From NCBI GenBank assembly GCA_030390025.1, contig CM059432.1, forward strand, positions 30,320,001-30,384,000: DNA of 64,000 bases, read 5' to 3'. Under the pieces are notes generated by a model. It was not told the DNA's origin, made no database searches, and saw only the letters and a list, made by a program, of their open reading frames with translations. Within the stretch, counting starts at the first letter, position 1. Each line of letters starts with the position of its first letter. Made by a program: the position numbers and the translations under genes. This document shows, in pieces, positions 4,767-64,000 of this stretch. This DNA is from Squalus acanthias. Its lineage: Eukaryota.

Positions 4767-4939
4767 AGTGGCAGGGGGTTGGGAACCTGAGCAGGGAGAC
4801 AGAGGAAAGGGAAACAAGGATAAAAGCTAAAGACAGGAAGGAGAAAAACAAAAGTAGAAGGCAAAGAACTCAACGGTTTAAATCAAACATTGTCACAGTA
4901 AATAATAATTCATATAGGTCTGAGAGCGTTAAAAAAACA

Positions 4940-18970: not shown

Positions 18971-19184
18971 GATCTGCATTTGCTTCAATGGCCTTCCCTG
19001 GCAACTTACTTCACAACTGTACTAACACTTGGAGAAAATCATTTCAAACTGATTTCCCTTCTTATTCCTAATTTTAACCTTTTTGGCCCTGGTATTTAAA
19101 TATTTTGCCACAATGAGCAAAAAAAAGAAACTCTTTCAGAAACATCTCGAGGCACTTCACATACAATTAATTATTTTGAAATTC

Positions 19185-19612
19185 ATGACCACCGGACGTC
19201 TCAAAGCGCTTTACAGCCAATTAAGTACTTTTTGAAGTGGAGTCACTGTTGTAATGTGGGAAACGTGGCAGCCAATTGGCGTACTGCAAGCTCCCACAAA
19301 CAGCAATGTGATAATGACCAGATAATCTGTTTTTGTTATGTTGGTTGAGGGAGAAATATTGGCCAGGACACCAGGGATAGCTCACCTGCTCTTCTTCGAA
19401 ATAGTGCCATGGGATCTTTTACGTCCACCTGAGAGAGCAGACGGTGCCTCGGTTTAAATCTCATCCGAAAGACGCCACCTCCGACAGTGCAGCACTCCCT
19501 CAGCACTGCACTGGCGTGTCAGCCTCGCTTTATGTGCTCAAGTACCTGGAGTGGGACTTGAAACCACAATCTTCTGACTCAGAAGCGAGTGTGCTACCAA
19601 CTGACAAGCTGA
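19185..19612 (-). mobile_element. Deu-domain tRNA SINE
   Basis: Same architecture as 18530-18970. Confidence 0.85.
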
Positions 19613-25867: not shown

Positions 25868-26750
25868 TGACGTCCAGTCCTGGATGATTTGCAATTTTCT
25901 CAAATTAAGTATTGGGAATACCAAAGCCATTGTCTTCGGCCCCTTCCATAAACTCTGTTCCCTCACCACTGATTCCATTTTCCTACCTGGCCACTAACTC
26001 AGGCTGAACTAGACTATTTGCAACCTCGGCGTTCTATTTGACCCGGAACTGAGCTTTTGACCCCATATCCACTCCGTCACAATGACCACTTACTTCCACC
26101 TCTTTAATATCACCCGTCTCTGCCCTTGCCTCAGATCATCTGCTGCTGGAACCCTCCTCCATGCTTTTGTTACCTCCAGACTGAACTATTGCTATATGCC
26201 CTTCTGGCCGGCCGCTCACCTTCCACCCTCCATAAACTTGAGCTCATCCAAAATTCTGCCGCCTGTTTTCTAACTTGCATCAAGTCCCATTCACCTATCA
26301 CCCCTGTGCTCGCTGACCTACATTGGCTCCCGGTTCACCAACGCCTCAAATTTAAAATTCTATCCTCGCGTACAAATCCCTCTGCGGCCTCATCCCTCCC
26401 TAGCTCTTTAACCTCCTCCAGCCCGACTACAACCCTCCGATAATTCTACGGTTCTCCAACTCTGACTTCTTATGCATCCCCCACTCCCTTCACCCCACCA
26501 CTGGCAGTTGTGCCTTCAGCCATCAAGGCCCTAAACTCTGAAATTCCCTCCCAAAACCCCTCTGCCTCTCCTCTGTCTGTTCCTTAAGACCCTGCTTAAA
26601 ACCTACCTCTTGGATCAATCACCGCTCCACCCCTGCACCAATGTCTCCTTCTTTCCCTCGATGTGAATTTTTGTCTGATAACGCTCATGTAAAGCGCCTT
26701 GGGACGTTTTACTACATTAGAGGCATTATATAAATGCAAATTGTTGTTGT
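25868..26750 (+). mobile_element. L2-clade LINE 3' fragment
   Basis: LKLSIGNTKAIVF, HAFVTSRLNY, IQNSAA and LADLHWLPV motifs; ends ATATAAATGCAA(TTG)n. Confidence 0.88.
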
Positions 26751-27267
26751 CTGTATACTGATGTTGTATGTGCACTGTTGCTGTCACTGTATTGTGTTGT
26801 CCATATACTGGCATGGACAATGTACTGGTATTGTCCCTGTACTGATGCTGTCCATGTACTGGTGCTATTCATATGGCTGTAACTATTTCTAACACCAAAG
26901 TTCTGATCGGTCCCAATGGAGGACAAGACAAGGTTTCTGATTGGTCCCCTTGGCGGACAAGGCACACACAGTTTGTCTGGAATGTGTAATTAGATCCTGC
27001 CTGCCTGAGTAATCAAGATCTTTGCAATGTGTCATTTGATCCATAACACTACTGCTTTCAGAGAACAGACAGGGCTCACCCTCTTGGGTTAGGAGCACGC
27101 ACACTGCTGAGTTCAGATGGGAAGGGATGAGACCATGGAGGGATTTTAACATAAGGATGAGAATTTTAAAATCAAGGTGTTGGTGGGCAATGTTCCCCCG
27201 AATTTTTTTTTTTAACGGGCTGCACGGGACCTCCAGGCAGCTGCATAGGGGTGATGGGTGAATGGGA

Positions 27268-28775
27268 CATAAGAGCATAAGAAATAAGAGCAGGAGTAAG
27301 CCTACAGCCACTCAAGTCTACTCCGTCATTCAATAAGGTCATGGCTGATCATCGACCTCAACTCCACTTTCCCGCCCGATTTCCATATCCCTTGATTCCC
27401 CTAGAGTCCAAAAATCTATCTCAGCCTTGAATATACTCAAAGACTCAGCATTCACAGCCCTCTGGGACAGAGAATTCCAAAGATTCACAACCCTTTGAGT
27501 GAAGAAATTCCTCCTCATCTCAGTGGCCTACCCCTTATCCTGAGACTATGCCCCCTAGTTCTAGACACTCCAGCCGGGGGAAACAACCTCTCAGCATCTA
27601 CCCTGTCAATCCCCTTCAGAATTTTGTATGTTTCAATGAGATCACCTCTCATTCTTCTAAACTCCAGAGAGTATAGGCCCATTCTGCACAATCTCTCCTC
27701 ATAGGACAGCCCTCTCATCCCAGGAATCAATCTAGTGAACCTTCGTTGCACCGCCTCCAAGACAAGTGTATCCTTCCTTAGATAAGGAGACCAAAACTGT
27801 GCACAGTACTCCAGGTGTGGTCTCACCAAGGCCCTGTACAATTGTAGCAAGACTTCCTTACTCTTATACTCCAACCCCCTTGCAATAAAGGCCAACATGC
27901 CATTTGCCTTCCTTATTGCTTGCTGTACCTACATGCTAGCTTTCTGTGTTTCTTGCACGAGGACACCCAAATCTCTCTGAACAGCAACATTTAAAAGTTT
28001 CTCAACATTTAAAAAATATTGTGTTTTTCTATTCTTCCTACTAAAGTGAATAACCTCACATTTCCCTTCATTATACTCCATCTGCCACCTTACTGTCAAC
28101 TCACTTAGTCTATCTATATCCCTTTGCAGACTCTTTGTGTTCTCCTCACAGCTTACTGTCCCACCTAGCTTTGTATCATCAGCAAACTTGGATACATTAC
28201 ACTCGGTCCCTTCATCTAGGTCATTAATATAGATTATAAATAGCTGAGGCCCCAGCACTGATCCTTGCGGCACCCCACTAGTTACAGCCTGCCAACCTGA
28301 AAAAGATTTGTTTATCCCTACTCTCTGTTTTCTGTCCGTTAACCAATCCTCTATCCATGCTACTAGATTACCCCCAACCCCGTGAGCCCTAATCTTGTGT
28401 AATAACCTTTTATGTGGCACCTTATCAAATGCCTTTTGGAAATCCAAATATACTACATCCACTGGTTCCCCTTTATCTACCCTGCTAGTTACATCCTCAA
28501 AAAGCTCTAATAAATTTGTCAAACACAATTTCCCTTTTATAAAACCATGTTGACTCTGCCTAATCATGTTATGATTTTCTAAGTGCCCTGATACCACTTC
28601 CTTAACAATGGATTCCAGCATTTTCCCGATGACTGATGTCAGGCTAACTGGCCTGTAGTTCCCTGTTTTCTCTCTCCCTCCTTTCTTGAATAGCGGTGTT
28701 ACATTTGCGACCTTCCAATCTGCTGGGACCGTTCTAGAATCTAGGGAATTTTGGAAGATCAAAACCAATTCATCC
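27268..28775 (-). mobile_element. 5'-truncated CR1 LINE inserted in an L2 fragment
   Basis: RT ORFs 27929-28786 and 27515-27898; (CATAAGA)n tail. Flanks rejoin as the L2 sequence GAATGGGACTTG.TGC..GTTAGGATA. Confidence 0.93.
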
Positions 28776-28903
28776 ACTTGTTGCATGTTAGGATACCTGC
28801 AGCAGGGTTTTGGATGAGCTCAAGTTCAGGAGAACATTGGAATAGTCGAGTCCGGCAGAGTGTCCATAACTAACAATAAAAATTTTTAAATTAATTACAT
28901 AGA

Positions 28904-29857
28904 ATGGAGCAGGTGATGTGTTACTGTTGCGAGATGTGGGAGCCGGTGGACCCCATTGAGGCTCACGGTGATTACATCTGTGACAAGTGTCTGCTGCTAC
29001 AGGAACTTCAGCTCCGTATTGATGAGCTGGAGTCTGAGCTTCAGACACAGTGACACATCAGGGTGGGGGAGAAGTACCTGGACTTTGTGTTTCAGGAGGT
29101 GGTCACACCTATGAAGTTAATTAATTCAGATGTAGCCCATGGTCAGGGACAGGACGGTGTGACTACGAGTGAGGCAGGTACGGGGATCCAGGAGGTAGTG
29201 TTGGAGGAGCCGCAGCCCTTGCTCTTGTCCAACAGGTTCGAGGTTCTTACTCCCTGTGGGGACAGGAGCAGGGACTGCAGGGAGGATGAGCAACCTGGCC
29301 ACAGCACCGTGGAACGGGGGGCCATTCAAGAGGGGGGAGTAAATAAAAATGTTGTAGTGGTAGGGGATAGTATTATTAGGGGGATAGATAGAGTTCTCTG
29401 CAGCCGAGAGCAAGAGTCCCATAGGCTGTGTTGCCTGCCCGGTGCCAGGGTTAAGGACATCTCCTCTGGGCTGGAAAGAAACTTGCAGTGGGAGGGGGTG
29501 GATCCAGTTGTCGTGGTCCATGTTGGTACAAACGACGTAGATAGGACAAGGAAGCAGGTTCTGTTAAAGGAGTATGAGCAGCTAGGGGTCAAATTAAAAA
29601 ACAGAACCTCAAGGGTATTAATCTCTGGATTATTACCTGAGCCACGAGCGAATTTGGCTAGGACAAATAAAATTAGAGAGTTAAATGAGTGGCTCAAAGA
29701 CTGGTGTGGGAGAAATGGGTTTTGCTTCCTGGGACACTGGCACCAGTACTGGGGCAGGAGGGAGCTGTTCCGTTGGGACGGGCTTCACTTGGCCAGTGCT
29801 GGGACTAGAGTCCTGGCGGATCATATAACTAGGGCTGTAGAGAGGGCTTTAAACTAA
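28904..29857 (+). pseudogene. CR1 ORF1 (zinc finger + SGNH esterase), disrupted near the N-terminus
   Basis: MEQVMCYCCEMWE start; LSNRF, VVGDSIIR, HVGTND and DGLHL motifs. Confidence 0.88.
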
Positions 29858-29895
29858 CTAGTGGGGGGGAGGTTCCTAGAGAGCAAATAATAAAA

Positions 29896-32847
29896 ATGAC
29901 AACAGAGAAGGTCATAGACTTAGGTAGCGGTGGGGAAATTAAAAACCAGAGTGTGTCAGGAAGGGGCAGAAGGTATGGAGTAAAAGGTAAAGTAATAAAA
30001 AGGGCAAAAGCAGGAACTAAGTGTCACAAAACATATTTGAAAGTTCTCTATCTGAATGCACGTAGCATTCGTAACAAAATAGATGAGTTAATGGCACAAA
30101 TAACTACATATGGGTATGATCTTGTGGCCATTACAGAAACATGGCTGCAGGGTGACAATGCCTGGGAATTAAACATACCAGGTTATTTAACGATCAGGAA
30201 GGACAGGCAGGAAGGAAGGGGAGGTGGGGTGGCTATGTTAATAAAGGAAGGAATCACTGTAATACAGAGAAATGATATTGGGTCAAAAGATCAGGATAAT
30301 GAAACAGTTTGGGTGGAGATAAGGAATAATAAGGGGAAAAAAACATTAGTGGGCGTAGTCTATAGGCCTCCAAACAGTTGCAACTCTGTTGGACGGAGTA
30401 TCAATCAGGAAATAGTTGAGGCTTGTAATAAGGGAACATCTTTAATTATGGGGGATTTTAACTATCATATTAATTGGACAAATCAAATTGGGCAGGGCTG
30501 CCTTGAAGATGAGTTCATTGAGTGTATTAGGGATGGGTTTCTTGAGCAGTATGTGACTGAACCGACCAGGGGGCAAGCAACCTTAGATCTGGTCCTGTGT
30601 AACGAGACAGGATTAATTAAAAATGTCTTAGTAAAGGATCCCCTTGGAATGAGTGACCATAACATGGTTGAATTCCATATTCAATTAGAGGGTGAGAAGG
30701 TTGGATCTCAAACAAGCGTGCTAAGCTTGAATAAAGGAGACTATGAAGGTATGCGAGCAGAATTGAGTAGAGTGGATTGGGAAAATAGATTAAAGGGTAA
30801 GACGATACATGATCAGTGGTGTACATTTAAGGAGTTATTTTACAACTTCCAAAAAATATATATTCCACTGAGAAGAAAAGGGTGTAAAAGAAAAGACAGT
30901 CATCCATGGCTAAGTAAAGAAATTAAGGATAATATTCGACTAAAAACAAGGGCTTATAAGGTAGCAAAATCTAGTGGGAGGATAGAGGATTGGGAAAACT
31001 TTAAAAGACAGCAAAAAATAGCAAAAAGATTGATTAAGAAAGGGAAGATAGATTATGAAAGTAAATTAGCAAAAAATATAAAAACAGATAGTAAGAGTTT
31101 TTATAGTTATATAAAAAGAAAAAGGGTGGCTAAAGTAAATGTTGGTCCCTTAGAGGATGAGACCGGGAAATTAATGGTGGGAAATATGGAGATGGCAAAT
31201 ACACTGAATGAATATTTTGTATCAGTCTTTACAGTAGAGGACACTAAGAATATCCCAACACTGGACAAATAGGGGGCTATAGGGGGGGAGGAGCTAAACA
31301 CGATCAAAATCACTAAGGAAGTGGTACTCGGTAAAATAATGGGACTCAAGGCGGATAAATCACCTGGACCTGATGGCTTACATCCTAGGGTCTTGAGGGA
31401 AGTGGCGGTAGGGATTGTGGATGCATTGGTAATAATTTTCCAAAACTCCCTGGACTCAGCAAAGATCCCGGCAGACTGGAAAACTGCTAATGTAACACCC
31501 TTATTTAAAAAGGGCAGTAGACAGAAGGCTGGAAACTATAGACCGGTTAGCCTAACATCTGTGGTAGGTAAAATTTTGGAGTCCATTATTAAGGAGACAG
31601 TAATGGGACATTTGGATAATCATAATTTAATAGGACAAAGTCAGCATGGTTTTATGAAGGGGAAGTCATGTTTGACAAATTTGCTGGAGTTCTTTGAGGA
31701 AGTAACACACAGGGTGGATAAAGGGGAACCAGTGGATATGGTGTATTTAGACTTCCAAAAGGCATTTGACAAGGTGCCACACAAAAGATTATTGCTTAAG
31801 ATAAAAAATCACGGGATTGGGGGTAATATTCTGGCATGGATAGAGGATTGGCTATCTAACAGAAGGCAGAGAGTTGGGATAAATGGTTCACTCTCAGACT
31901 GGCAATCAGTAACTAGTGGTGTTCCGCAGGGGTCAGTGCTGGGTCCCCAACTCTTTACAATCTATATTAACGATTTGGAGGAGGGGACAGAGTGTAACAT
32001 ATCAAAGTTTGCAGATGATACTAAGATGGGAGGGAAAGTAGTGAGTGAGGAGGACATAAAAAATCTGCAAGGGGACATAGACAGGCTAAGTAAGTGGGCA
32101 GAGATTTGGCAGATGGAATACAATACTGGAAAGTGTGAGGTTATGCACTTTGGCAGGAAAAATAGTAGAGCAAGTTATTATCTAAATGGCAAGAAACTGG
32201 AAAGTACTGAAGTACAAAGGGATCTGGGGGTCCTGGTGCACAAAACTCAAAAGGTTAGTATGCAGGTGCAGCAAGTGATTAAGAAGGCCAATGGAATGTT
32301 GGCTTTCATTGCTAAGGGGATAGAATATAAAAATAGGGAGGTATTGCTTCAGTTGTACAAGGTATTGGTGAGACCGCACCTGGAATACTGCGTACAGTTT
32401 TGGTGTCCATACTTAAGAAAAGACATACTTGCTCTCGAGTCAGTACAAAGAAGGTTCACTCGGTTAATCCCGGGAATGAGGGGATGGACATATGAGGAGA
32501 GGTTGGGTAGATTGGGACTCTACTCATTGGAGTTCAGAAGAATGAGAGGCGATCTTATTGAAACATATAAGATTGTGAAGGGGTTGGATCGGGTGGATGC
32601 GGGGAGGATGTTCCCGATGATGGGTGAAACTAGAACTAGGGGGCATAGTCTTAGAATAAGGGGCTGCTCTTTCAAAACTGAGATGAGAAGGAACTATTTC
32701 ACTCAGAGGGTGGTAGGTCCATGGAATATGCTGCCCCAAAAAGCTGTAGAAGCTACATCATTACATAAATTTAAAACAGAAATAGACAGTTTCCTAGAAG
32801 TAAAGGGAATTAAGGGTTACGGGGAGCAGGCAGGAATTTGGACATGA
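29896..32847 (+). pseudogene. CR1 ORF2 (APE-RT), single in-frame stop at 31270-31272
   Basis: ORFs 29896-31272 and 31321-32847 are in the same frame; all EN and RT motifs present. Confidence 0.95.
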
Positions 32848-33704
32848 GTCTAGGTTCGGATCGGTCATGGCCCTGTGGGTAGCGTAGCGGGCCCAGGGGC
32901 CGTGTAGCCTGATCCTGCTCCTATTTCGTGTGTCCAATTCTGTTAGGTTCAGGAGATGGTTCTGTGATAGTAGATTGGCGGTTAGGATCAGATCAGCCAT
33001 GATCTTATTGAATGGCGGAGCAGGCTCGAGGGGCCAATTGGCCTACTCCTGCTCCTAGTTCTTATGTTCTTATGTTCTTATGTAAATAACACGTCAATGT
33101 AATGTTATGCATGTTGTAGGACCAACACAGAATATGCTCTCATTTTTTAAAATTCATTTATTTATTGCCCATCCCTAGTTGCCCTTGAGAGGGTGGTAGT
33201 GAGCTGCCTTCTTGAACCACTGCGGTTCGGGTGGGGGAGGGGGGTGGGGTAGGAAAGGGAGAACATGGTGCAGATGTAATGGGGGTGGGGGTGGAAGAAG
33301 GTGATCCAGGCCTAACAGAGGGCAGGAGAACGTGACCTATCTTCCATCTGGATCACGTCCTTGTTCTCATCCCCCCCCATCTCCTTTAGACCTGGATCAT
33401 GTTCTTCACCCCCTCCCCACTGTTCTCACCGCGCTCCCTCCGCCAACAATTTCCTGACTTTCTCTCCCCGAGATCCTGACCTCCTCCCGAGCTCCTGACC
33501 TCCTCCCGAGCTCCTGATCTTTCCCCTCCCCCCTTCCCCCAAGCTCCTGACCTTCTCCCCCCGCCCGAGTTCCTGACTTTCTCCCCAGTCTCCAAGCTCC
33601 TTTCTCCCCCTCCTCTCCCCCTCTGATCCGCGCTCTCCCCCCCTTCGATCCTCTCTCCCCCCTTCGATCCTCTCTCCCGCTCCAAACCTCTTTCTTCCCC
33701 CCTT

Positions 33705-35970: not shown

Positions 35971-36377
35971 TAGTGAGGGTAGAAGATCCACAAAGCAACG
36001 AGGGTGGGGAAGGGAGCAAGGGTGAGTTTTGTTCAGCAAAATACTGTATAATTTGAAAATATTAAGTTTTGTGAAGACTGGCTGTGGATAAAGCTGGATT
36101 TGGACTAGGCAACATCAGCTAATGTTGGAAGACCTAGAAGGTAAGTAGCAGCAAGAATGCAGTTTAAAACCATTCCTAGGCAATTTAACAGTAATGATTT
36201 ACCTAGGCACTACAACAAGCCTGACAAAAGTGTGACAAGATCATGACTAGTAATGTATATGTACTGTTGCTATCTGTGTACTGTTGCTGTGTGTATATTG
36301 GTGCAGTATCTCTGTTGGTGCTGTATATGTAATGGTGCAGTGCATGTACTCCCAATCCTCTGTTCTGGAGGAGCACA

Positions 36378-36780
36378 GGGACTTAAACACATAAAGCTAG
36401 GCTGACACTCCAGTACAGTGCTGAGGGAGCGCTGCACTGTCGGAGGTGCCATCTTTCGGATGAGACATTAATCCGAGGCCCCGTCTGCTCTCTCAGGTGG
36501 ATGTAAAAGATCCCATGGCACTATTTCGAAGAAGAGCAGGGGAGTTATCCCCAGTGTCCTTTCCAATATTTATCCCTCAACCAACATAACAAAAAACAGA
36601 TTATCTGGTCATTTTCACATTGCTGTTTGTGGGAGCTTGCTGAGCGCAAATTGGCTGCCGCATTTCCCATATTACAACAGTGACTCCACTTCAAAAGTAT
36701 TTCATTGGCTGTAAAGCACTTTGAGACGTCCGGTGGTCGTGAAAGACGCTATATAAATGCAAGTCTTTCTTACTTTCTTT
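36378..36780 (+). mobile_element. Deu-domain SINE
   Basis: GCACTGTCGGAGGTGCCATCTTTCGGATGAGACATTAATCCGAGG core; TATATAAATGCAAG tail. Confidence 0.88.
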
Positions 36781-37010: not shown

Positions 37011-37618
37011 CAACAACAATAATAACAACAACTTGCATTTATATAGATCCTTTAATGTAGTAAAGCATCCCAAGGTGCTTCACAGGAGTGTTATTAGACA
37101 AAATTTGACACCGAGCCATATAAGGAGATATTAGGACAGGTGACCAAAAGCGTGGTCAAAGAGGTAGGTTTTAAGGAGCATCTTCGAGGCGGAGAGAGAC
37201 ATCGTGAGGCGGAGAAGTTTAGGGAGGGAATTCCAGTGCTTAGAGCCTAAGCAACTGAAGGCACGGCTGTAATGATAGGGCGAAGGAATTTGGTGATGCA
37301 CAAGAGGCCAGAATTGGAGGAATGCAGAATTCTTGGAGGGTTGTGGGGCTGGAGGAGGTTACAGAGGTAGGGAGGGGCAAGGCTATGGAGGGATTTGAAC
37401 ACAAGGATAAGAATTTTAAAATCGAGGGGTTGCTGGACCAGGATCCAATGTAGGTCAGCGAGCACAGGGGTGATGGGTGAATGGGACTTGGTGCGAGTTA
37501 GGATATGGACAACAGGATTTTGGATGAGCTCAAGTTTATGGAGGGTGGGAAGCCAACCAGGAGAGCATCAGAATAGTTGAGTTTGGAGGTAACAAAAGCA
37601 TGGATGAGGCTTTCAGCA
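37011..37618 (-). mobile_element. L2 3' fragment inserted in an older Deu-SINE (~36912-37900)
   Basis: LADLHW ORF and (AAC)n tail; SINE head upstream, SINE core downstream. Confidence 0.82.
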
Positions 37619-38974
37619 GTACTGCATTACTAAGGGAATGCTGTATTGTCAGAGGTGAAGTCCTTCAGATATGACATTAAACTGAGGCACGATCTGTTTG
37701 CTCAGGTGAACGTAAAAGGTCTCATTAGAAGAGCAGTGAATTCTCCCAATGTTCTGTTCAGCATCCCTCCCTCAACCAATAGACTCAATGATAGATTATC
37801 TGGTTATTCATCCCATTTGCTGTTTGTGGGACCCTACTTTGTACAAATTGGATGTTGCGTAACAACATAACAACAGTGACTGCAATTCAAAAGTAATCCA
37901 TCACCTGTAAGTCATGACAAGCTGTTTCACCTTCTCCATAACAGTAGAACCAGAGGTCACGGCCTGCACTTGATCTGCGGAAACGAGTGAGCACATGGTA
38001 AATCTACGGAACAGGCTCCTTCGGGAAATGGTGTAAGCAGATTGTGTTGACTTCCTCAAATGCAAATTAGATACATTTCTTTCAGAAAATAATATTTTGA
38101 GATATATATCATATGAGCAATTTGAGGCATGACATATGGTAAGTGCAGCATGCTTGGGAGGGACAGGTGACATTGAAATCTATGGCTCCCAAAGCTTTCC
38201 ACCACTGGGATTTTCCTCGCCTCCTGTCTGGGTCAGTTGTGGACTAATTGTTGGAGATTGAGTGCTATGATTAGTCAACAACTCCATTATTGTTGTACCA
38301 TGCGACTACCAGGGTGGTAAAAGGCAAGCGAGATGGACCTTGAACTTTTTTGTCTAGCAATTCCTATGTTTCGAAATCCTGAGGACATGATAAGGTGCTA
38401 TATACATTCAGGTTCTTTCTCTTTGTGATAGACACATCTATCAGATTTAGTATATTCTCCTCCATGTTTTGACCAGCGAGAGTCCAGCTCGAATAGGGAG
38501 AGTATAGAGAGTGTATGAGCTCGGAACACATGCAGGATATGATGGTACATTGAACAGCAACACAGTATATCTGAAAAATTTCCAACAGCCACTCTCCTCT
38601 TCAATTCTACAATACTAACTGTAGAATCCTAAATATTGTTTTAAGTTGTTCAACTCTGTCCTTCTCTCATGAAGGGAAAATTCTAAAAGTTAAAATATTT
38701 TTAAGAAAATGAACAAAAGTATTCCAAGCAAAATATGATTGGAAGTTAATTTTTGACAATGTCTTCTTGGCTTATGTTTATTTAATTTACTAGCTCTCTG
38801 CTACAGTAGCAGTGCTGGGGTCATGGGAACGTCACCTGTGGAATGCAATGTTAGATTGACATGCTGGAGGTTAGCTCTAATTCCTTTGGGGCATCAGGAA
38901 GAAACTAATAAGGATTTATCTTCTTCTGCAAATACCCAACCCCCTCATGAGATTGGGGAAACTCCGTGACAATA

Positions 38975-39405
38975 CAAGAAAGACTTGCATTTATATAGCG
39001 CCTTTCACAACCTCAGACATCCAAAAGTGCTTTACAGCCAATGAAGTGCTCTTGAAGTGCAGTCACTGTGGCAACATAAGGAAACGTGGCAGACAATTTG
39101 TGCACAGCAAGGTCCCATAAGAGCAATGAGATAATGGCCAGATAATCTATTTTAATGATGTTGGTTGAGCGATAAATATTGGTTAGGGCACTGAGGAGAA
39201 CTTCACGGGATCTTTTAATTTTATCTAAGAGGGCAGACAGGACCTCGGCTTAACGTCTCATTCAAAAGACGGCACCTCTGACAGTGTAGCACTCCCTCAG
39301 TACTGCACTGAAGTGTCAGCCTGGATTATGTGCTCTATTGTGGTCTTGAACCCACAGCCTTCTGACCCAGAGGCAAGAGTGCTACCACTGAGCCACAGCA
39401 GACAC
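38975..39405 (-). mobile_element. Deu-domain tRNA SINE
   Basis: Tail, Deu core and tRNA-like head all present. Confidence 0.85.
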
Positions 39406-41404: not shown

Positions 41405-41955
41405 GGAAAGAAAGAACTTGCATTTATATAGCGCCTTTCACAACCTCAGGACGTCGCTGTTGTAATTTAGGGAAATGCGGCAGTCAATTTGTGCACAGCA
41501 AGGTCTCACAAACAGCAATGAGATATATAACCAGATAATCTGCGTTGGTTGAGGGATACATTTTGGTCAGGCCTTCCCTGCATCAAAATAGTGCCATGGG
41601 ATCTTTTACATCCACCTGAGAGGGTAGATGGGGCCACAGTTTAACATCTCATCTGAAAGGTGCACCTCCAACAGTGCAGCACTAGAGGGTCAGCCTAGAT
41701 TAAGGGCTGGATTTTGTCTTGGGGTCGGGTTGGGGTCATGTCATCCGCATTTCGTGTTCCCCCCCCCCCCCCCCGACTCCAGATTAATGATGCAATTTTC
41801 ACTTAATTGGGCAATTGAGTTCCAGCATGTGGGAACCCATGAACTAATTAGTGGTTTCAGTCTGAAAGTCGCCTCTGATGATGTCATCATTGCTGACTGC
41901 CTGGCCTCAGAGACTGCCTGGCTTTTGATGTGAGTGGACCTGAATGCAAAATGTG

Positions 41956-46449: not shown

Positions 46450-48430
46450 AACAACAACAACAACAACTTGTATTTATATCGCGCCTTTAACATAGTAAAA
46501 CGTCCCAAGGCGCTTCACAGGAGTTTTAAAAGACAAAAAATTGACACTGAGCCACATAAGGAGAAATTAGGGCAGATGACCAAAAGCTTGGTCAAAGAGG
46601 TAGGTTTTAAGAAGCATCTTAAAGGAGGAAAGAGAGGTAGAGAGGTGGAGAGGTTTAGGCAGGGAATTCCAGAGCTTAGGGCCTAGGCAACAGAAGGCAC
46701 GGCCACCAATGGTTGAGCGATTATAATCAGGGATGCTCAAGAGGGCAGAATTAGAGGAGCGCAGATATCTTGGGGGGTTGTGGGGCTGAAGGAGATTCCA
46801 GAGATAGGGAGGGGCGAGACCATGGAGGAATTTGAAAACAAGGATGAGAATTTTGAAATCGAGGCGTTGTTTAACCGAGAGGCAATGTAGGTCAGCACAG
46901 GGGTGATGAGTGAACGAGACTTGGTGCGAGTTAGGACACGGGCAGCCGAGTTTTGGATGATCTCAAGTTTACGTAGGGTAGAACGTGGGAGGCCAGCCAG
47001 GAGCGCGTTGGAATAGTCAAGTCGAGAGTCAATATTTAATTGGAGAAAATTTCTGCTCATCCAGAACTGGATGTCAGACAACTAGTCTGACAATTTAGAG
47101 ACCGTGGCGGGGTCGAGAGAAGGGGTGGTGAGGTAAAGCTGGGTGTCATCAGCATACATGTGGAAACTGAGACTGTGTTTTCGGATGATGTCGCCAAGGG
47201 GCAGTATGTAGATGAGAAAAGGGAGGGGACCAAGGATAGATCCTTGGGGGACACCAGAGGTAACAATGCGGGCGTGGGAAGAGAAGCCATTGCAGGTGAT
47301 TCTCTGGCTACAATTAGATAGATAAGAATGGAACCAGGCGAGTGCAGTCCCACCCAGCTGGACGACGGTGGAGAGGCGTTGGAGAAGGATGGAGTAGTCA
47401 ACCGTGTCAAAGGCTGCAGACAAACCAAGAAGGACAAGGAGTGATAGCTTACCTTTGTCACAGTCAAAAGGATGTCATTTGTGACTTTGAGAGCTGTTTC
47501 AGTACTGTGGCAGTAGCGGAAACCCGATTGGAGGGATTCAAACATGGAGTTCCGGGAAAGATGAGCACGGATTTGGGAGGCGACAACACGTTCAAGGACT
47601 TTGGAGAGGAAAGGGAGGCTGGAGATGGGCTGGTATTTTGCAAGGATGGAGGGATCAAGGGTTAGTTTTTTGAGGTGAGAGGTGATGACGGCAGTTTTGA
47701 GGGAGAGGGGGACAGTACCTGAGGAGAGAGAACTGGTATCAATGTCAGCTAACATGGGAGCCAGAAAAGGTAGTTGGGTGGTCAGCAGTTTGGTGGGAAT
47801 AGGGTCGAGGGAGCAGGAAGTGGGTCTCAGGGACAAGATGAGCGTGGAGAGGTCATGAGGAGAGATCGGAGAGAAACTGGAGAAAGATGTGAGTTCAGGG
47901 CTAGGGCAGGGGGGGAACCTTAGAGGAAGTTTGGCCCAGTGGGCTAGGGGAAGGAAGGGAAGTGGCAGAGGCAGCTGAACAGATGGTCTCAATCTTAGAG
48001 ACAAAGAAGTCCATGAGCTCCTCACACTTGTTGTCAGAGGTGAGGGTGGAGGAGACAGGGGAGAGGGGTTTAAGAAGTTGGTTAGCAGTGGAGAATAGGA
48101 GCCGGGGTTTATCTTTGCATTCCGGAATGATTCTGGAATAGTGAGCAATTTTGGCAGACGGGAGTAGGACCCGATAATGCTTTATGTGGTCCAGCCAGAT
48201 CTGGTGGTGAATGGCTAAACCAGTTGTCCGCCATATCCGTTCAAGTCTGCATCCCTAGGACTTAAGGGAGCGAAGATGAGGGCCGTACCAGGGCAAACGG
48301 CCAGGGTGAGAGAGAGAGTAATTATTTTAATGGGGACTAAGGCATCAAAGGTGGTGGTGAGGGTGTGGTTGAGCAGATCGGTAGCTGCAGAAATGTCGCG
48401 GTGAATGGAGGGCCAAAGGCTGGACAAAGT
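46450..48430 (-). mobile_element. L2 LINE, ~2 kb 3' part with RT pseudogene
   Basis: TSCSLDPIP, LQSGFR..HSTETAL, SAAFDTVD, PQGSILGP and YADDTQLY motifs; (AAC)n tail; internal deletion near 47030. Confidence 0.92.
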
Positions 48431-50572: not shown

Positions 50573-51125
50573 ATTCTCTCTAACTCAGAGTTATAGGGCT
50601 GGATTTTGCCAGGCCCGAGGAGGAGGGAATGGAGGCGTGTGGGGTGTTAAAATAGCAAAAAATGGCGGGCGAGCCTGACCCCGCCTCCATCCCGCCTCCG
50701 AGTAATTTTCCCCAATGCGTGGTTTCTGATCCCGTCTCCGTCCCGCCTCCAAGAGGCGGGATACGCCTTTAAGGCCCTTACCAACAACTTAATTGCCTCT
50801 ATAATCCCATTTTGAGAGGCCTTTCTGATTTTAACACTTTTCCCACGTGATGCACGCCTCCTCTGACACACGACGGTGAAACCTGGCGGTAACAGAATTG
50901 GATTGCTGAGTATCAGCTGCAGCTCCACCATTAAAAAGGAGATTTGATCAATCATCATTTGCAGGTGGCAGAACTTTGTTGTCTCATGTCTGGGGGAACA
51001 TTTAACAGGCCTAACCATTGCTGTGGAAGTTTGGAGCCTGACACCCATCTCCAGTGTGACCTCCTGGGAAACCCCTCTCCCCACCTTGAATGAGCGCTTC
51101 CTCAACTGAGTCATATACCAGAAGT

Positions 51126-52341
51126 ATGGGAACCATTTATTTCCTTTCCTCCTGGACATCAGATGAGGACGAACACCAGCCATGGCAGCAGCAGAATCCT
51201 GAACACCAGCAGCACCAACTGCAGGAGCAACAGCAGCAGCTCCAAGCTACTGCTCACCCACCTGAAGCTGCACAGGCCAGAGGGTGCCAGCGCATGGAAG
51301 CACGTCGGCGCAGGAGATACCCCCAAAACAGGGTCTACAGACAGAGGATCAGCTACCTCAGCATGACTGAGCAGCAGTGCCGAAGGCGGCTACGACTTTT
51401 GCAAGAGATAGTGGGTGACATCTGCGCAATGGTGGAGCAAGACCTGGAGCCCAGAGGAGCAGGTGGACACCCCTTACCAGTGCCCATCAAAGTCACCACC
51501 GCACTCAACTTTTTTGCCTCAGGCTCATTCCAGTGATCAGCAGCAGACATCAGCGGCATCTCCCAGGCGGCCGCACACACTTGCATCACGCAGGTAACCG
51601 ATGCCCTCTTTGCCATCGCGCACAATCACATCCATTTCTCCAAGGATCAAGCCAGGTTTGACAATCTGGCAGGCTTTCCAAGGGTGCAGGGCGTCGTTGA
51701 CTGCACACGTGGCCCTTAAGGCACCCCATCACAATCCAGGTATTTTTGTCAACCGCAAGGGCTTCCACTCCCTCAACGTACAGCTGGTGTGTGATCACAA
51801 GAAGGAAATTTTGCATGTTTGCACCAAGTACCCTGGCAGTTGCCATGACTCCTTCATCCTGCGCCAGTCTAGTGTGCCTCCACTCTTCAGTCCGCCAGAC
51901 CAACTTCACGGATGGCTACTTGGAGACAAGGGCTATCCCCTGAAGACATGGCTAATGACACCGTTTAGGAGCCCATCCAACGAAGCTGAGGAGTGCAACA
52001 ACTACAGCCACATTTCCACCAGATCCATAATCGAGCAAACCATCGGCTTGCTGAAGATGCGCTTCAGATGCCTGGATAGATCAGGTGGAGCCCTGCAGTA
52101 CTCAGCAGCCACGGTCTCGAGAATCGTCGTGGCTTGCTGTGCACTTCACAACATGGCACAGCGTCATGGCTTGCAGATTCCTGAGGACCAAGTGGCTCCT
52201 CACATATCCTCGTCAGATGAGGAGGAGGAGGAGGGTGAAAACGCTCATCTTGCAGAGGCGCATCAACCAGCGGCAGCAGTGCACGAGAATATTGCTGCCC
52301 AGAATGCAAGGAACGCACTCATCTTGGCCAGATTTGCTTAG
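51126..52341 (+). pseudogene. Harbinger transposase, copy B (stop at 51534-51536, deletion and frameshift ~51640-51710)
   Basis: Colinear with copy A; GDKGY and [15 protein letters not shown] motifs. Confidence 0.92.
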
Positions 52342-52598
52342 CCTAGCCAATCAAGCACTTTTTCCTCGCAGCTTCTTACCAGAGCATCGACAATGGCCAA
52401 GAACCAGCGGAATCCTAGCACTCTGACCACCATACTGACAATTGCAAGTCATCCTAAGCCCTCAATGTGGAAGTCCCATTAGCGATATGACACATGCCAC
52501 AACTGCAACAGTTGCCATCAGAATTTTTATTTACAGTCACCAACTGATGGCTTTTCAACATTAAACATCACATTTCACCCAAGTGACTCCCCTTGTGA

Positions 52599-54606
52599 CT
52601 ATTTGTGCAGTATCTTTCTCTTACGCGTGCTCATACGTGGTGGTTCCCCCTTGGCATCAGCAGATGTGGAAGCCCCTTGCTCACTTTCTTGCTGCTCGTG
52701 TCTTGACACCTTTGGCGGGCGTCCTCTGGGGTTGCAAACCTGTGAGGGCTCGGCAACAGTCTGCTGCTCCTGCGGCTGAGCAGGGGTTGAGACGCCGATC
52801 TCAGTTGGGTGGGGACTCTGGTGGGGTTCTGACCGAGGGCTTTGCAGTGTCATGGTCGTGTGAGCGCTTGGAGAGGAGCCCCTACTTCCTTGTTCTCTGC
52901 CACCAACATCCCTCTCATGGGTCAGCCCCACCTCCGAGCTAGCAAGTGGCTTGACAGCACCTTGCAGCACCTCAGGGGGGCCATGAGGACCCGGTTCTGC
53001 ACTGGAAGTCCTACTCCCGAGGACTTGCATGAAGGTCTGGTTTGTGTGCTCAATAGCTAACCATCGCTCCTCAAGAGATGTCATTCTATTCTGAACAATT
53101 ACCATGTTTTCCATACCCTGGCGACTAAGCTCCTCCATGGACATAGCCATCCTCTCCTCTACCGTAGCCATCCTCTCCTCTACGGTAGCCAGCCTCACCA
53201 TGGAGGTAGCCATCCCTTCCACGGAGGTTGCCATCCTTTCCGTGGTGATGCGTTCATGCGCCAACGCCTCCACAAATGCTCTGCTCATGTTCGCGATGGA
53301 CTCCTCCATTCGCTCCACACTCGCAGTGACCCTGGAGACAAAACCTGTCAGAGACTCCTGCACCTGTTCCTGGAGTTCCAGCACCGCTGTTCTTCTAGAT
53401 GGACCCAGAGGCAGAGGGTCGACATGCAGCTGAGCCGAGCTAGGAGAGTCCTGCACCCTCCGACTAGGACTCTCCACTGCTGTCCCTGTCTCCACCATCT
53501 GCTGATGCTCACTTGTGAGCTGTGATACACCAGGTGACAACACTACTCTCTCTCGCGATGGTCCCACCGAGGTGTGAGTGTCTGCGCTGGTGCTGTGTTG
53601 GCTGAATTCTGCTGACGCTGCGCCCTCAGATGTTGCAGCTTCCTCTGAGGAGTCTGGAGGCTCAGGCTGGTCCTCCTGGAGAGTGGGGACGGGTGCTTGC
53701 GATGGTCCTGTGGGGGAGTAAAGGAAAGAGTCAGAGATGTGAGGCCAAGGTTACATGCACAGTGCATATTGCAGATGGTCAGAAGTCCATCTGTTAGAGC
53801 TTCAGAATCATTATCAGCGACTCATGCAATGTCAATGAGAGAGATGAAAACTCTTCTGTCACCAGCTTGCTTTGATGTGCCCGTCTGTCCGTCCCCCACT
53901 TGCGCATCGTCCTCGACTCCCACGATCTCCAGGGCCGCCTCCTCCCAAGGGGTGAGCTGGGCTACTGAGGGTGGCCCTCCTCCTGTCCTCGCTCTTTCCC
54001 TCTTATTGTGAGCTCTCTTTTCCTGCAATGAGGGAGACAAGTGGAGTTTGAGTGAGAATGAAGGAGTGAGTGTAGAGAATCCATAGCATAGATGCTTAGA
54101 AGGAGTCAAAGATGGAGTGAGGTGGCAGGACCAAGGGCCCTCCCTGTGTGTTGTAAGTTGTTTTCATAGCATCACAGCGATAGGGAGTGTGAGGGCTGCA
54201 TAGTCAATAGTTAGGTGAATGTGAACATACAGAGAGAGGGATTGGGTAAGGGTGCAGGGATGTCAGTGTCAAGTGGGATGTGGAGGAAGAGGTTGCTAAA
54301 GCTGAGTGCTGGTGAGGAGAGGCAATGGGGATCAGATTGAGGGTGATGGGAAAGTCACACTCACTTTTCCAGTGCGCAGAAGGTCATGAAGCCTCTTCCT
54401 GCACTGAAGCCAGGTTCTGCGGATCAGTAACAACGAGTTGACCTCCTGTGCCACCTGGACCCACACAGCCTTCGTCTGCTGGGGAGGCTTCTTCCTCCCT
54501 GAAGAAGGGAATAGAGCACCTCCTTATTAACTCTTGTTCCCTCCACCAAAGCATGCAGGGCGACGTCATCAAATCTGGGAGCAGACTTAGGTCTCCTGCT
54601 GCTCAT
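52599..54606 (-). pseudogene. Harbinger Myb/SANT coiled-coil gene, copy B: exons 54606-54365, 54022-53863, 53707-52599; one frameshift in exon 1
   Basis: APRFDDVALHALVEG...W..VA.EVN...RTWLQCRKR..DL Myb/SANT motif; TGGGPP linker; GT-AG introns; exons 2 and 3 splice in frame. Confidence 0.88.
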
Positions 54607-56335
54607 TTTGCCTCCAGGTCCCTCTCACAGCAAAGGACAAAAGGTTGGCAGTCTGCAGAAGAAGCAAGGCTTCTTGCAGACCTTAAATGCAGCAGCAATG
54701 ATGACGTCATCGGAGGCAACTTTTACACTGAAAAAACTAATTGGGTCATGGGTTCCCACACGCTGGAACTCAAGTGCCCAATTAGGGGAAAATCGAATAA
54801 CTCTCCCTCCTCGACTTGGAGTCGGGTGGCTAACACGAAAAGAGGATGACACAACTCCAGCCCGCCCCATGACAAAATCGAGCCCAAAGAGTATAACACA
54901 CAAGAAGAGTTGGCTAAGAGTCAGTAAGAAGTTTACTGATGCACTTTATAAAATATCACATAATGTAACCATTCAGTAAAATGTGCCGCTCATTTGAAAA
55001 ATCTGATATAAGTAAAGGATGAAGCCTTCAGGTACAACAAGCCCAGCTTTAAAAAAAATTAAATCAGCCCTTCCTTCTCACCATATTCTTCAATCACTCC
55101 TGTCATCTAATTGTCTCCTAAACCCATTTATAATGCCAGTTTGCCAACCTTCCCTGGTAACATAATCAGTAAGTTGCTCATCCTTTGTGTGAAAAGATTC
55201 TGCCTGACTTCCCTTCTTATACCTAACTTCCTGATTGCTGACTTTCAGCTGTGGTGTGTGACAGCGTAGTGCCCTTTCCCTTTGAAACACACCCTTACCA
55301 GCCAAACCCTTCCCACCCTCTCCAGCATTTCTTACATGCCGATTGGTGAATTGACCCTCCCTGCCTCATCTCTGTAGTCTTGCTATTGGTAACTTTCAGC
55401 TCTGTGTATCTTAGCAGAATGCTTGCGTTGATTGGGTTGGACGCTGGGTAAAGCTAATGGGAAACACACACAGTTCCTCATGAGTGTAATCACTAGTGGT
55501 TTGTGTGATTGATTCTACTAACACCAAAGCCAACTGAAGGTTGTCAAAATCACATCATTTGATCTGTGACACAAAACATGTCATTAAAATGAAAGTAGTG
55601 GACTCGGTTTTTAAAATGCAGGAGACGTTTGACAGGTTGCGGCTGAGCGGATGACTATTCATCAATGTCGCCTTTGAAATGCGCTTGAGTTGGATGGTCC
55701 GGTGACAGGATGGGAGGGGAAGAATGGTGTATGCTTAGTGCTGATATTCACAGTGCACCTTATTTGGAGCATTGTGAGACCAGTCTGTGAGTCGGCCTGC
55801 AGTGATAATGGGCTTGATTTTACCAGCCCTGAGGAGGCAGGTTTGGAGGCGGGTCAGGTGGTAAAATGGCTAAAATGCCGGCGCGTTCCGATCCCACTGT
55901 CAACCCACCTCCGTGCAACTTTGCCAAAGGTGGGCTTGCAGACTCCCGTTCGGTCCCGCCACCAAGCTACGGGATAGGCCCTTAAGGCAGTTAACTGCTT
56001 GTTAACTGCCTGTGTAATCCTATTTTGCCTGCCCTTTTAAATTTTACCACATTTTCAGCATGTTCCACGTCGTTTCCAAACCACGCCAGCTAATTGTGTC
56101 GGGTTCACAAGTGGCTGCCTTCTTGACAGCTGCAGCTCCAGCATAAAAACTGAGCTCTCAACAAGGCTCAGTTGCAGGTGGCAGAACTTTGTTTCTTCAG
56201 GTCTTGGAAAACCTTTTGCAGGTCTACTGATCTTGGAAGTGATGAAGCTGAGATCCATCTCCACTGTGACCTCCTGGGAAAACCCTCTCCTCACATTGAC
56301 TGAACGCTCCTTCAACTGAGATATCTACCAGCAGC

Positions 56336-59772: not shown

Positions 59773-60521
59773 TTCAGGAGTATCAAACACTTAGCACAGT
59801 AGTCACTCTGGAAGTACAGAGGGAGAAAATGAACCAAGGCTGCTTGGAGCCCTTAAAAGCAGCTGGATAAATGACGTCAGCAGAGGCGAGTTTCAGACCC
59901 GAACGACTAATTGGGCCAGAGGAGCGCACACGCAGCGAATCAATTGCCCAATTAGGGCAAAATCGCAAATTTATCCCGCCTGACAGTGGAGGCGGGAGCG
60001 GCACCCAACCCGCCTCCATTAGTAAAATTGCGGCCAATGTGTCAAATACAGACACCATTTCAACCATTGGCTTAATTTAATAATTAATAATTCTTTAATC
60101 AAATCAGCTGAACTGAAAATAACAATTGGAGCAGACTTGATGGGGCCGAGAGTCTTTCCTCACCTTTCTTTTCATATGTAATAGTGTTGATGATTGGAAT
60201 ATATCACATGACCTCCTTGAATAAGTCTGTGAATTTAGTGCAGCTAGAATTTAACTTGGATGGTTCTATACTGTGGACCCGTAGCTGCTAAGAATTGGGC
60301 TGAGTCTGCCCTAGATCATTTTAAAATAGGACCATTTGAGCCTACAGAGAAATTTTTTTTTTCATCTAGCAGTGTCAACTGGGCTTGAACTCAACACGCA
60401 GAGGTGCGAAGACAGTGCTACCCATTTGAATTCTCCTTTGAATCTGTAAGCTTTCTTTTACAACAACAATAACAACATACTTTATTTAGTGCATATAACA
60501 TAGAAAAATATCCCAAGGTGC

Positions 60522-63500
60522 TTTTTTTTATATTCGTTCCTTGGATGTGAGTGTCGCTGGCAAGGCCAGCATTTATTGCCCACCCCTAATTGCCCTTGAG
60601 AACGTGGTGGTGAGCCACCTTCTTGAACCGCTGCAGTCCTTGTGGTGAAGATACTCCCATCAAGCTGTAAGGGAGGGAGTCCAGGATTTTGACCCAGCGA
60701 CGTTGAAGGAACAGCGATATATTTCCAAGTCAGGATGGTGTGTAACTTGGAGGGAACTTGCAGGTGGTGGTGTTCCCATGCGCCTGCTGCCCTTGTACTT
60801 CTAGGTGGTAGAGATCCCGAGTTTGGGAGGTGCTGCTGAAGAAGCCTTGGCGAGTTGCTGCAGTGCATCTTGTAGATGGTACACACTGCAGCCACGGTAC
60901 GCCGGTGGTGAAGGGAGTGAATGTTTAAGGTGGTGGATGGGGTGCCAATCAAGCGGGCTGATTTGTCCTGGATGGTGTCGACTTTCTTGAGTTTTGTTGG
61001 AGCTGCACTCATCCAGGCAAGTGGAGAGTATTTCATCACACTCCTGACTTGTGCCTTGTAGATGGTGGAAAGGTTTTGGGGAGTCAGGAGGTGAGACACT
61101 CGCCGCAGAACACTCAGCCTCTGACCTGCTCTTGTAGCCACAGTAGTTATGTAGCTGGCCCAGTTAAGTTTCTGGTCAATGGTGACCCCCAGGATGTTGA
61201 TGGTGGGGGATTCGGCGATGGTAATGCCATTGAATGTCAATGGGCGGGGGTTAGACTCTCGCTTGTTGGAGATAGTCATTGCCTGGCACTTGTGTGGCGC
61301 GAATGTCACTTGCCACTTATCAGCCCAAGCCTGAATGTTGTCCAGGTCTTGCTGCATGCGGGCAGGAACTGCTTCATTATCTGGGGAGTTGCGAATAGAA
61401 TTAAACACTGTGAAATCATCAGCAAACATCCTCACTTCTGACCTTATGTTGGAGGGAAGGTCATTGATGAAGCAGCTGAAGATGGTTGGGCCTAGGACAC
61501 TGCCCTGCAGAACTCCTGCAGTGATATCCTGGGGCTGAGATGATTGACCTCCAATAACCACAACCATCTTCCTTTGTGCTAGGTATGAATCCAGCCAGTG
61601 GAGAGTTTTCACCCCGATTCCCATTGACCTCCATTTTACTAGGGCTCCTTGATGCCACACTCGGTCAAATGCTGCCTTGATGTCAAGGGCAGTCACTCTC
61701 ACCGCACCTCTGGAATTCAGCTGCTTTGTCCATGTTTGGACCAAGGCTGTAATGAGGTCGAGAGCCGAGTGGTCCTGGCGGAACCCAAACTGGGCATCAG
61801 TGAGCAGGTTATTGGTGAGGAAGTACCACTTGATTGCACTGTCGACGACACCTTCCATCACTTTGCTGATGATTGAGAGTAGACTGATGGGGTGGTAATT
61901 GGACGGATTGGATTTGTCCTGCTTTTTGTGGACAGGACATACCTGGGCAGTTTCCACATTGTTGGGTAGATGCCAGTGTTGTAGCTGTACTGGAACAGCT
62001 TGACTAGAGGTGCGGCTAGTTCTGGAGCGCAAGTTTTCAACACGACAGCCGGGATGTTGTCTGAGCCCCACAGCCTTTGCTGTATCCAGTGCTCTCAGCT
62101 GTTTCTTGATATCACGTGGAGTGAATCTAATTGGCTGAATACTGGCTTCTGTGATGGTGGGGACCTCAGGAGGAGGCCGATATGGATCATCCACTCAGCA
62201 CTTCTGGCTGGAGACAGTTGCAAACGCTTCAACCTTGTCTTTTGCACTCACGTGCTGGGCTCCACCATCATTTAGGATGGGGATATTCACAGAGCCTCCT
62301 CCTCCTCCTGTTAGTTGTTTAATTGTCCACCACCATTCACGACTGGATGTGGCTGGACTGCAGAGCTTTGATGTGATCCGTTGATTGTGGGATCACTTAG
62401 CTCTGTCTATAGCATGCTGCTTCACTGATTAGCATGCATGTAGTCCTGTGTTGTAGCTTCCCTAGGTTGGCACCTCATTTTTAGGTACACTTGCTGCTGC
62501 TCCTGGCATGCTCTTCTGCACTCCTCATTGAACCAGGGTTGGTCCCCTGGTTTGATGGTAATGGTAGAGTGAGGGATATGCTGGGCCATGAGGTTACAAA
62601 TTGTGGTGGATTCAATTCTGCTGCTGCTGATGGCCCACAGCGCCTCATGGATGCCCGGTTTTGAGCTGCTAGATCTGTTCTGAATCTATTCCATTTAGCA
62701 CGGTGGTAGTGCCACACAACACGATGGAGGGTGTCCTTAGTGTGAAGACGGGTCTACATCTCCACAAGGATTCTACAGTGGTCACTGCTACCAATGCTGT
62801 CATGGACAGATGGATCTGCGACAGGTAGATTGGTGAGGACGAGGTCAAGTAGGTTTTTCCCTCGTGTTGGTTCTCTCACCACCTCTCGCAGGCCCAGTCT
62901 CGCAACTATGCCCTTTAGGACGCGGCCAGCTCAGTTAGTAATGGTGCTGCTAAGCCACTCTTGGTGATGGACATCGAAATCCTCCACCCAGAGTACATTC
63001 TATGCCCTTGCTACCATCAATGCTTTTTCCAAGTGGTGTTCAACATGGAGGAGTACTGATTCATCAGCTGAGAGAGGGCAGTAGGTGGTAATCAGCAGGG
63101 GGTTTCCTTGCCCATGCTTGACCTGAAGCCATAAGACTTCATGGGGTCCGGAGTCAATGTTGAGGACTCCCAGGGCCACTCCCTCCCGACTGTAAAGCAC
63201 TGTGCCGCCACCTCTGGTGGGTCTGTCCTGCCGGTGGGACAGGACATACCCAGGGATGGTGATGGAGGAGTTTGGGACATTGGCTGAAAGGTATGATTCT
63301 GTGAGTACGACTGTGTCAGGCTGTTGCTTGACTAGTCTGTGGGACAGCTCTCCCAATTTTGGCACAAGTCCCCAGATGTTGGTGAGGAGGACTTTGTAGG
63401 GTCGACTGTGCTGGGTGTGCCGTTGTCATGACCGAAGCCGATGGCAGGTGGTCCGTCTGGTTTTATTCTTCTTATTGTTTTTCGCAGCGTTTTTTTTACT

Positions 63501-63678
63501 ACTGAGTGGCTTGCTAGGCCATTTCATAAGGCAGTTAAGAGTCAACCATATTGCTGTGGGTCTGGAGTCACATATAGGCCAGACCAGGTAAGGACTGCAG
63601 ATTTCCTTCCCATTAGTGAACCAGATGGGTTTTTATGACAATCTGATAGTTTCATGGTATCACCATAACTGAAACTAA
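60522..63678 (-). mobile_element. Non-LTR retrotransposon with a single APE-RT pseudo-ORF (~63400-60700) and a SINE-like 5' leader; clade not assigned
   Basis: EN start KVLLTNIWGLVPKLGEL, VLTESYL, RGGG; RT NYHPISLLS, QFGFR, DIKAAFDRVWH, QGSVLGP, FADD; A-rich 3' tail at 60522. Confidence 0.9.
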
Positions 63679-64000
63679 GGGCTGGATTTTGTCAATGGGG
63701 AGCTTTTGGAGGCGGGACTCCCACTTGTCGGGTTTCAGTCCCGCCTCCATCAACTTCTGGCCAACCCATGCTATTTTCCCTTGATTGACCTTGTTAAGCC
63801 CACCCAGCGGGCTTAGCAGGCCAATTAAGGGAAAGTCGGTTACAGAGAATGTCAGTGGATGACGTTCCATCTGTCAAAAATTTTTGACAGATGAATTGTC
63901 ATCGTTTGACAGCTCTGTGAAGACCTCATCAAACACTGACATTCTCTGTAGTTTGATGAGGTCTTGAATTCAAGACTCATCAAACCTCTTTCTTTAGCAG
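63679..64000. mobile_element. Harbinger-type element, left end (runs off window)
   Basis: TAA then GGGCTGGATTTTG TIR and GGAGGCGGG subterminal motifs as in copies A and B. Confidence 0.8.

Follow-up and report, generated by a model that had tools for sequence, protein, structure and literature searches.

What kind of element is a LINE that runs from a SINE-like leader almost directly into its endonuclease, and which polymerase would transcribe it? The question is raised by a decayed non-LTR retrotransposon at 63678-60521 (minus strand) of the window, by which we mean the whole 64,000-nucleotide stretch of DNA that was analyzed. The element is a single-ORF LINE encoding an APE endonuclease and a reverse transcriptase (RT), and it ends in poly-A. 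A first-pass annotation of this DNA had described the leader as the body of a tRNA-derived SINE and had pointed to the lack of a first open reading frame (ORF1), and what it observed was confirmed here. The endonuclease motif LLTNIWGL (63389-63366, minus) follows the leader block at a distance of 111 bases, and there is no room for an ORF1 between that block and the endonuclease. The RT motifs AFDRVWH (61672-61652), QGSVLGP (61507-61487), and FADD (61426-61415) were confirmed, and the block does resemble the body of a short element elsewhere in the window, 63661-63501 matching 24168-23997 in 134 of 172 aligned columns (78%, E 1e-35).

Read along the minus strand, the copy consists of a 5′ leader block (63678-63501), which in its family lies downstream of a tRNA-like head, an A-rich linker together with the start of the coding region (63500-63426), in which comparison of the family consensi by eye reveals no conserved in-frame ATG, and the single ORF (63425-60586), with the APE endonuclease beginning at 63425 and the RT at ~61924-61178. 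Pfam RVT_1 matched the RT with an E value of 1.4e-35, and the APE family PF03372 gave a weak match (E 0.006) on a 141-aa piece. Five in-frame stops and at least five frameshifts interrupt the ORF, and the frame that matches the C terminus of relatives ends with the stop at 60586. The 3′ UTR of 65 bases (60585-60521) contains a 7-bp hairpin, an AATAAA at 60577, and an A8 tail at 60529-60522; loose ends at the A tail (60543) were found in 582, 1046, and 50 contigs of three sequencing runs. A 3′ stub of the same family is present at 33160-33234 (minus) and is 84% identical over 75 bases to 60645-60571. At the other end, only ~250 bases separate the endonuclease from position 63679, where a palindrome-rich, noncoding Harbinger-type insertion (63679-64000, plus strand) begins and then leaves the window. 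That this insertion cuts off the head of the LINE, as the first-pass annotation held, is supported by its first 14 bases, which equal the terminal motif at 41704 and differ by at most one mismatch from that at 50596, where an element whose ORF matches DDE_Tnp_4 begins, and by the TAA to the left of 63679. By eye, the interruption falls ~140 bases into the family consensus.

The LINE is almost certainly a dead copy of the elasmobranch Zenon family. Zenon is a CR1-group lineage reported from sharks, rays, coelacanth, and hagfish; it is described as always without ORF1 and as unique in having a poly-A tail (Stuart et al., PMC13343379). We compared the Zenon consensi in the supplement of that paper over the first 400 bases of each, the matching consensi having been assigned to Zenon by its authors. 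By eye, the leader at 63658-63501 is identical to SquAca_Zenon-1 at 152 of 158 bases (96%), plus one 8-base gap, a run of 49 consecutive bases at the start of the endonuclease is that of SquAca_Zenon-3, and the window copy picks up at about base 141 of the consensus. The published elasmobranch elements (SquAca_, CarCar_, RhiTyp_, ScyCan_, and HypSab_Zenon) are thus the same family, ~3.3 kb long with a single APE-RT ORF and poly-A, and the window copy likewise has a poly-A tail, one ORF with APE and RT, and no ORF1. The missing ORF1, which had been taken as odd, is already known and ordinary, because the element is a Zenon and Zenon is a clade without ORF1 (PMC13343379).

A phylogenetic tree of 117 of 127 RT pieces, which contained no labeled Zenon, placed the element in a 31-leaf clade (support 0.98) made up, besides the element itself, of 28 proteins and two loci (~49% identity at best), and apart from the CR1 copies of the window (26-32% identity). 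A canonical CR1 assignment, for which an esterase-type ORF1 or grouping with elements that carry one would be expected, does not fit the absence of ORF1 and this separation from the window's CR1 copies, and membership in RTE, Ingi, or Vingi is unlikely, given the DNA match to Zenon. The closest named protein match, at 67%, is to a fragment within a gene model of Heptranchias. ESM Atlas returned nothing beyond generic RT clusters for the LINE, and Rfam produced six weak matches in the window, far under the cut-offs, none of them on the LINE.

The head of the window copy is hidden; ARAGORN detected no tRNA in the 64-kb window, and no complete tRNA head is visible anywhere in it. The published elasmobranch consensi, which were extended automatically and then curated, and for which the legible counts give 59 to 2,313 long copies, do include this region (PMC13343379). 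By eye, an A box of the pattern TRGC-N-TAGTGG is found in all seven of them, representing five species (white shark, whale shark, catshark, stingray, and, with three consensi, dogfish). The box begins at base 6-11, with the consensi starting 5-10 bases ahead of it. The exact B-box decamer GTTCRAATCC follows ~45-55 bases beyond the A box in six of the seven, also by eye, and the B box of the stingray (HypSab) is degenerate. The expectation of the first-pass annotation that copies begin with an A/B-box head therefore holds for the consensi, the corresponding part of the window copy lying out of sight. Six variants of the B-box decamer were searched over the supplement table (1,003 elements by the paper's text; first 400 characters each, printed strand only), and all six matches were shark Zenon, no other element of the table having the decamer in its first 400 bases. 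Neither the two hagfish nor the one coelacanth Zenon has such a head or block in its first 400 bases. By eye, most consensi show AGT in the anticodon-like loop, the corresponding arm is apparently present twice in the dogfish head, and no acceptor stem is preserved in the heads. Independently of the consensi, the whale shark gene model P0048 has the block running straight into the endonuclease.

Judged from these sequences, the tRNA-like head is very probably a family feature of elasmobranch Zenon, and we lean toward the reading that the lineage gained a putative tRNA-derived type-2 promoter as its 5′ end. No A/B-box pair was detected upstream of relatives at 28 metagenome loci with at least 200 bases upstream, of which only one (L003) falls in the clade of the element; the pattern used likewise failed on the short element of the window, whose B box is decayed, and ARAGORN at a lowered threshold gave scattered noise on the metagenome loci. 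Within the literature searched, the head appears not to have been remarked upon. The words tRNA, promoter, and Pol III do not occur in the main text of PMC13343379, nor tRNA, promoter, and polymerase III in its preprint, as far as these texts were covered. Among the matches listed, titles and the starts of abstracts gave no Pol III-driven or tRNA-headed autonomous LINE, with Repbase, Dfam, and subscription journals lying outside the search, and nothing was found in the literature on shark tRNA SINEs with Zenon.

Were Pol III to produce a 3.3-kb transcript from such a head, the coding strand would have to be without terminators. The listed Pol III terminators are T4 or longer and TCTTT (PMC10572872), and the coding strand of the LINE has no TTTT and no TCTTT in 3,158 bases, with two TTVTT present; zero TTTT stands against 18 A4, 11 C4, and 6 G4 runs on the same strand. 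For TTTT alone, base shuffles gave an expectation of 4.7-5.1 (P 0.004-0.007), dinucleotide shuffles 2.4 (P 0.08-0.09), a synonymous-codon null 3.25 (P 0.026, with three of eight control loci also at P 0.02-0.04), and a null based on the element's own codon usage 2.2 (P 0.087). TCTTT joined the test only after TTTT had been tested; for the two motifs together, 6.1 were expected in base shuffles (P 0.001) and 3.5 in dinucleotide shuffles (P 0.019), against none observed. All of these values refer to one copy with low T (21%).

When both strands of the 64 kb are scanned, the interval without TTTT that extends furthest runs for 3,367 bases from 63875 to 60509; it covers the LINE and ends 12 bases beyond its tail. 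The next, on a Harbinger strand, measures 2,550 bases, which counts against the argument. None of 460 segments of the LINE's length elsewhere in the 64 kb contains fewer than three TTTT; TTTT density is 2.2-6.4 per kb in five further LINE copies of the window, and every one of 39 metagenome LINE stretches of at least 2 kb contains the motif. Where contigs of the sequencing runs differ by majority from the copy, none of the 39 differences tested would create a TTTT (469 more exist). Transcription by Pol III would be consistent with the absence of T-runs, which is no proof of it; taken with the head, this absence makes synthesis of a putative full-length Zenon RNA by Pol III, in our estimation, somewhat probable.

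Alternatively, Pol II might transcribe the same LINE, head included, using a promoter that lies within or upstream of it, and C-rich codon use would then account for the lack of T-runs. The head would be a passenger, a TFIIIC-bound helper, or a 5′-end processing signal, and would act as a Pol III promoter only in short derivatives. LINEs in general are Pol II transcripts (PMC5786205; PMC10886601), the AATAAA ahead of the poly-A tail of the window LINE fits Pol II equally well, and codon use does favor C endings (Phe TTT/TTC 5/12, Tyr 2/16), the conservative nulls lying near P 0.09. Such a promoter is harder to reconcile with consensi from five species whose first base lies 5-10 bases ahead of the A box and in which the boxes are kept, or with a TTTT-free stretch that coincides with the span of the element, and the heads without an acceptor stem (by eye) speak against tRNA-style processing. 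We consider transcription by Pol II a credible but doubtful explanation.

Pol III RNAs are uncapped and poorly translated. The sole in-frame ATG in the leader of the window copy (63527) is CTG in all seven consensi, and the next in-frame ATG, at 63017, lies well within the endonuclease. Six of the seven consensi retain an ATG beyond the A-rich linker, at a place where the window copy reads ATA. In the stingray consensus, examined by eye, this conserved ATG opens a short frame that overlaps the start of the endonuclease out of frame, and the same relation of frames exists in the window copy, where the short frame has ~45 codons (63466-63330, minus). Several relatives have an ordinary Met immediately ahead of the endonuclease. 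A non-AUG start, a frameshift, or a supply of protein from other transcripts may each explain how the protein is obtained.

The short element that shares the leader block occupies 24253-23901 (minus) and is a noncoding, 5′-truncated assembly of a B-box remnant, a linker, the LINE 5′ block, and the 3′ 100 bases of the LINE. Directly after the 5′ block, positions 23999-23901 match the LINE 3′ end (60620-60521) in 77 of 100 columns. A B-box-like remnant with one mismatch is kept at ~24248-24239, and no A box was found in this truncated copy. The 3′ tails of the LINE and the short element form the same hairpin (z about −2), and their 5′ blocks fold no better than shuffled sequences (z 0.4 and 0.2). 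A search for a target-site duplication flanking the short element was negative, the best candidate being 6 bases. The claim that the leader of the LINE is a SINE body is probably the reverse of what happened: the short element is composed of the LINE's own 5′ leader and 3′ tail, so that an internal-deletion derivative is a better reading of it than a donor of the leader.

Joints of the 5′ block to the 3′ tail were found in three of four sequencing runs and at several breakpoints. Run X1 has the joint 60582-63501 in five contigs and 60596-63503 in three, run X2 has each of the two in seven, and run X15 has the former in one; further breakpoints in X1 lie at 60625-63530 and 60659-63474 (among 15 joints listed; 4,968 more exist). 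Joined short forms also occur in P0045, P0047, and P0054, as judged by their translation. In X2, 436 contigs have loose ends at 63658, which do not separate LINE copies from SINE copies; they lead into sequence that resembles the linker of the short element and not the Harbinger insertion. In the raw DNA run X23, the one taken from X19-X24 (runs with small word shares), 91% of 149 reads continue into unlike sequence. No contig in the runs spans the whole LINE. PMC13343379 gives sequences but, in the text covered, no short derivative. Pieces of the LINE or of a short derivative also lie inside the predicted shark protein models P0044, P0047, P0048, P0050, and P0054, where they are probably annotation errors or products of exonization.

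An older tRNA-SINE could also have come first and have given its head and body to a 5′-truncated Zenon ORF by template switching, an account of origin only, which is compatible with Pol III drive. The hagfish and coelacanth Zenon, which have neither head nor block in their first 400 bases, imply that the head was gained from somewhere; the short element of the window is just 78% like the LINE block, and SINEs commonly exchange modules (PMC4824008). However, the short forms join the LINE tail at several different points, as repeated deletion would give, and searches for the block among SINEs were negative. Exact block motifs are absent from the supplements of three SINE papers (including PMC11481361 and PMC4824008, with one file outside the search), and no match was found in the main texts of the literature searched. 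For the central domains of the conserved-domain SINEs (Meta, Deu, V, and CORE), the comparison was by these exact block motifs in the supplements searched. Five of the ten protein matches to the translated block are named, four of them from whale shark and one a weak repeat match in salmon. The breakpoints favor repeated deletion from a headed LINE, and we regard prior existence of the SINE as unlikely; the head may ultimately derive from a tRNA gene or from an older SINE. A 19-base pattern of the block had no match in viral contigs or prokaryote genomes, and the protein matches gave no support to an occurrence of the block in invertebrates.

That this LINE is a one-off, inserted in or fused with a SINE, and that the published heads are artefacts of extension from an abundant SINE, is very improbable, since, for all that the head of the window copy is hidden, no contig spans the element, and the consensi were extended automatically before curation, the block is 96% like the LINE consensus and 78% like the local SINE, the same order recurs in five species with species-specific heads, and P0048 agrees independently. 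The first-pass annotation had raised two objections to its own reading: a chance insertion into a SINE falls away with the layout and head shared by all seven elasmobranch consensi, and the single-ORF family did prove to be described already, its head apparently without remark.

Comparable short elements are known from other lineages. Persaeus in Lepidoptera (PMC6740152), as here, consists of a Zenon 5′ end joined to a 3′ end that includes the end of the ORF, possibly with several origins; it is stated to be without tRNA homology and without a Pol III promoter, whereas here the parent LINE itself bears the head. Bov-tA with Bov-B, AfroSINE, and SINE2-1_ACar with Vingi (PMC5786205) also have a tRNA head followed by a LINE 5′ part and a LINE 3′ part, a layout that the short element of the window matches with a B-box remnant in place of the head. 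These bipartite LINE-derived SINEs are reported only from RTE and Vingi, the head having been added after the deletion, whereas here the parent belongs to Zenon in the CR1 group and no step beyond deletion would be needed. RTE-1_DAn and elements related to it, known by description only, are LINEs containing tRNA-like sequence and thus a possible precedent; they belong to the RTE clade and are treated in the same paper as a source of spurious matches, with no position or function stated (PMC5786205).

We tentatively propose that Zenon of sharks and rays is an autonomous, protein-coding retrotransposon read over its full length by Pol III from a captured tRNA promoter, that its 2.8-kb ORF has been purged of T-runs and is translated without a normal in-frame AUG, and that it sheds tRNA-SINEs by deletion, a composite reading drawn from sequence comparison that we hold with less confidence than its polymerase component. 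Pol III would start 5-10 bases ahead of the A box and read the whole 3.3 kb, because the coding strand offers no T-run terminator, and would stop at a T-run in the genomic flank. The endonuclease-RT protein might be translated from the Pol III RNA through a nonstandard start, or other copies might supply it when Pol II reads through them; if Zenon behaves as other LINEs do, the protein would bind the 3′ hairpin and begin reverse transcription, primed at the A tail. Ready-made tRNA-SINEs would arise, presumably more than once, when an internal deletion spares the head, the leader, and the tail; the joined forms show the structure of leader and tail that this would leave.

The textbook division assigns LINEs to Pol II and SINEs to Pol III (PMC10886601). 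If Pol III drives Zenon, of which sharks and rays carry hundreds to thousands of long copies per genome, that division would be broken, and Zenon would be a natural example of a long coding Pol III RNA, raising the matter of how such an RNA is translated. Deletion from a headed LINE would be a one-step route to new SINEs, and a CR1-group clade would join RTE and Vingi as sources of SINE bodies from 5′ ends. If Pol II drives Zenon, the finding reduces to a head that has gone unremarked and a SINE family without a name.

The window contains several other repeats. The 3′ flank of the Zenon LINE (60460-60523) corresponds to the terminal part of a different repeat family (37013-37080, 46451-46515, and 26691-26750), and the LINE therefore seems to have inserted in an older element. 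A CR1-type LINE at 29355-33082 (plus) has a nearly intact second ORF with one stop in 899 codons (30052-32748), and older relatives of it lie at 4264-7843, 27267-28778 (minus), and 14249-16551 (minus); the label CR1 for these LINEs rests on layout and motifs. At least seven copies of another repeat of 300-450 bases, 66-91% alike and probably a different SINE, were found at 12433-12781, 18524-18970, 19182-19604, 36376-36776, 37623-37910, 38976-39405, and 41408-41708. Three related Harbinger-type transposons, 79-88% alike, occupy 1-3052, 50596-54885, and 55810 to about 60030; among their ORFs, one matches DDE_Tnp_4 (E 2.7e-36) and another has a weak Myb/SANT match. Short copies with the same terminal motif are present at 41704, 42462, 8164, and 49390, and the insertion that cuts the LINE contains, at 63707-63985, a chain of palindromes of 36-78 bases.
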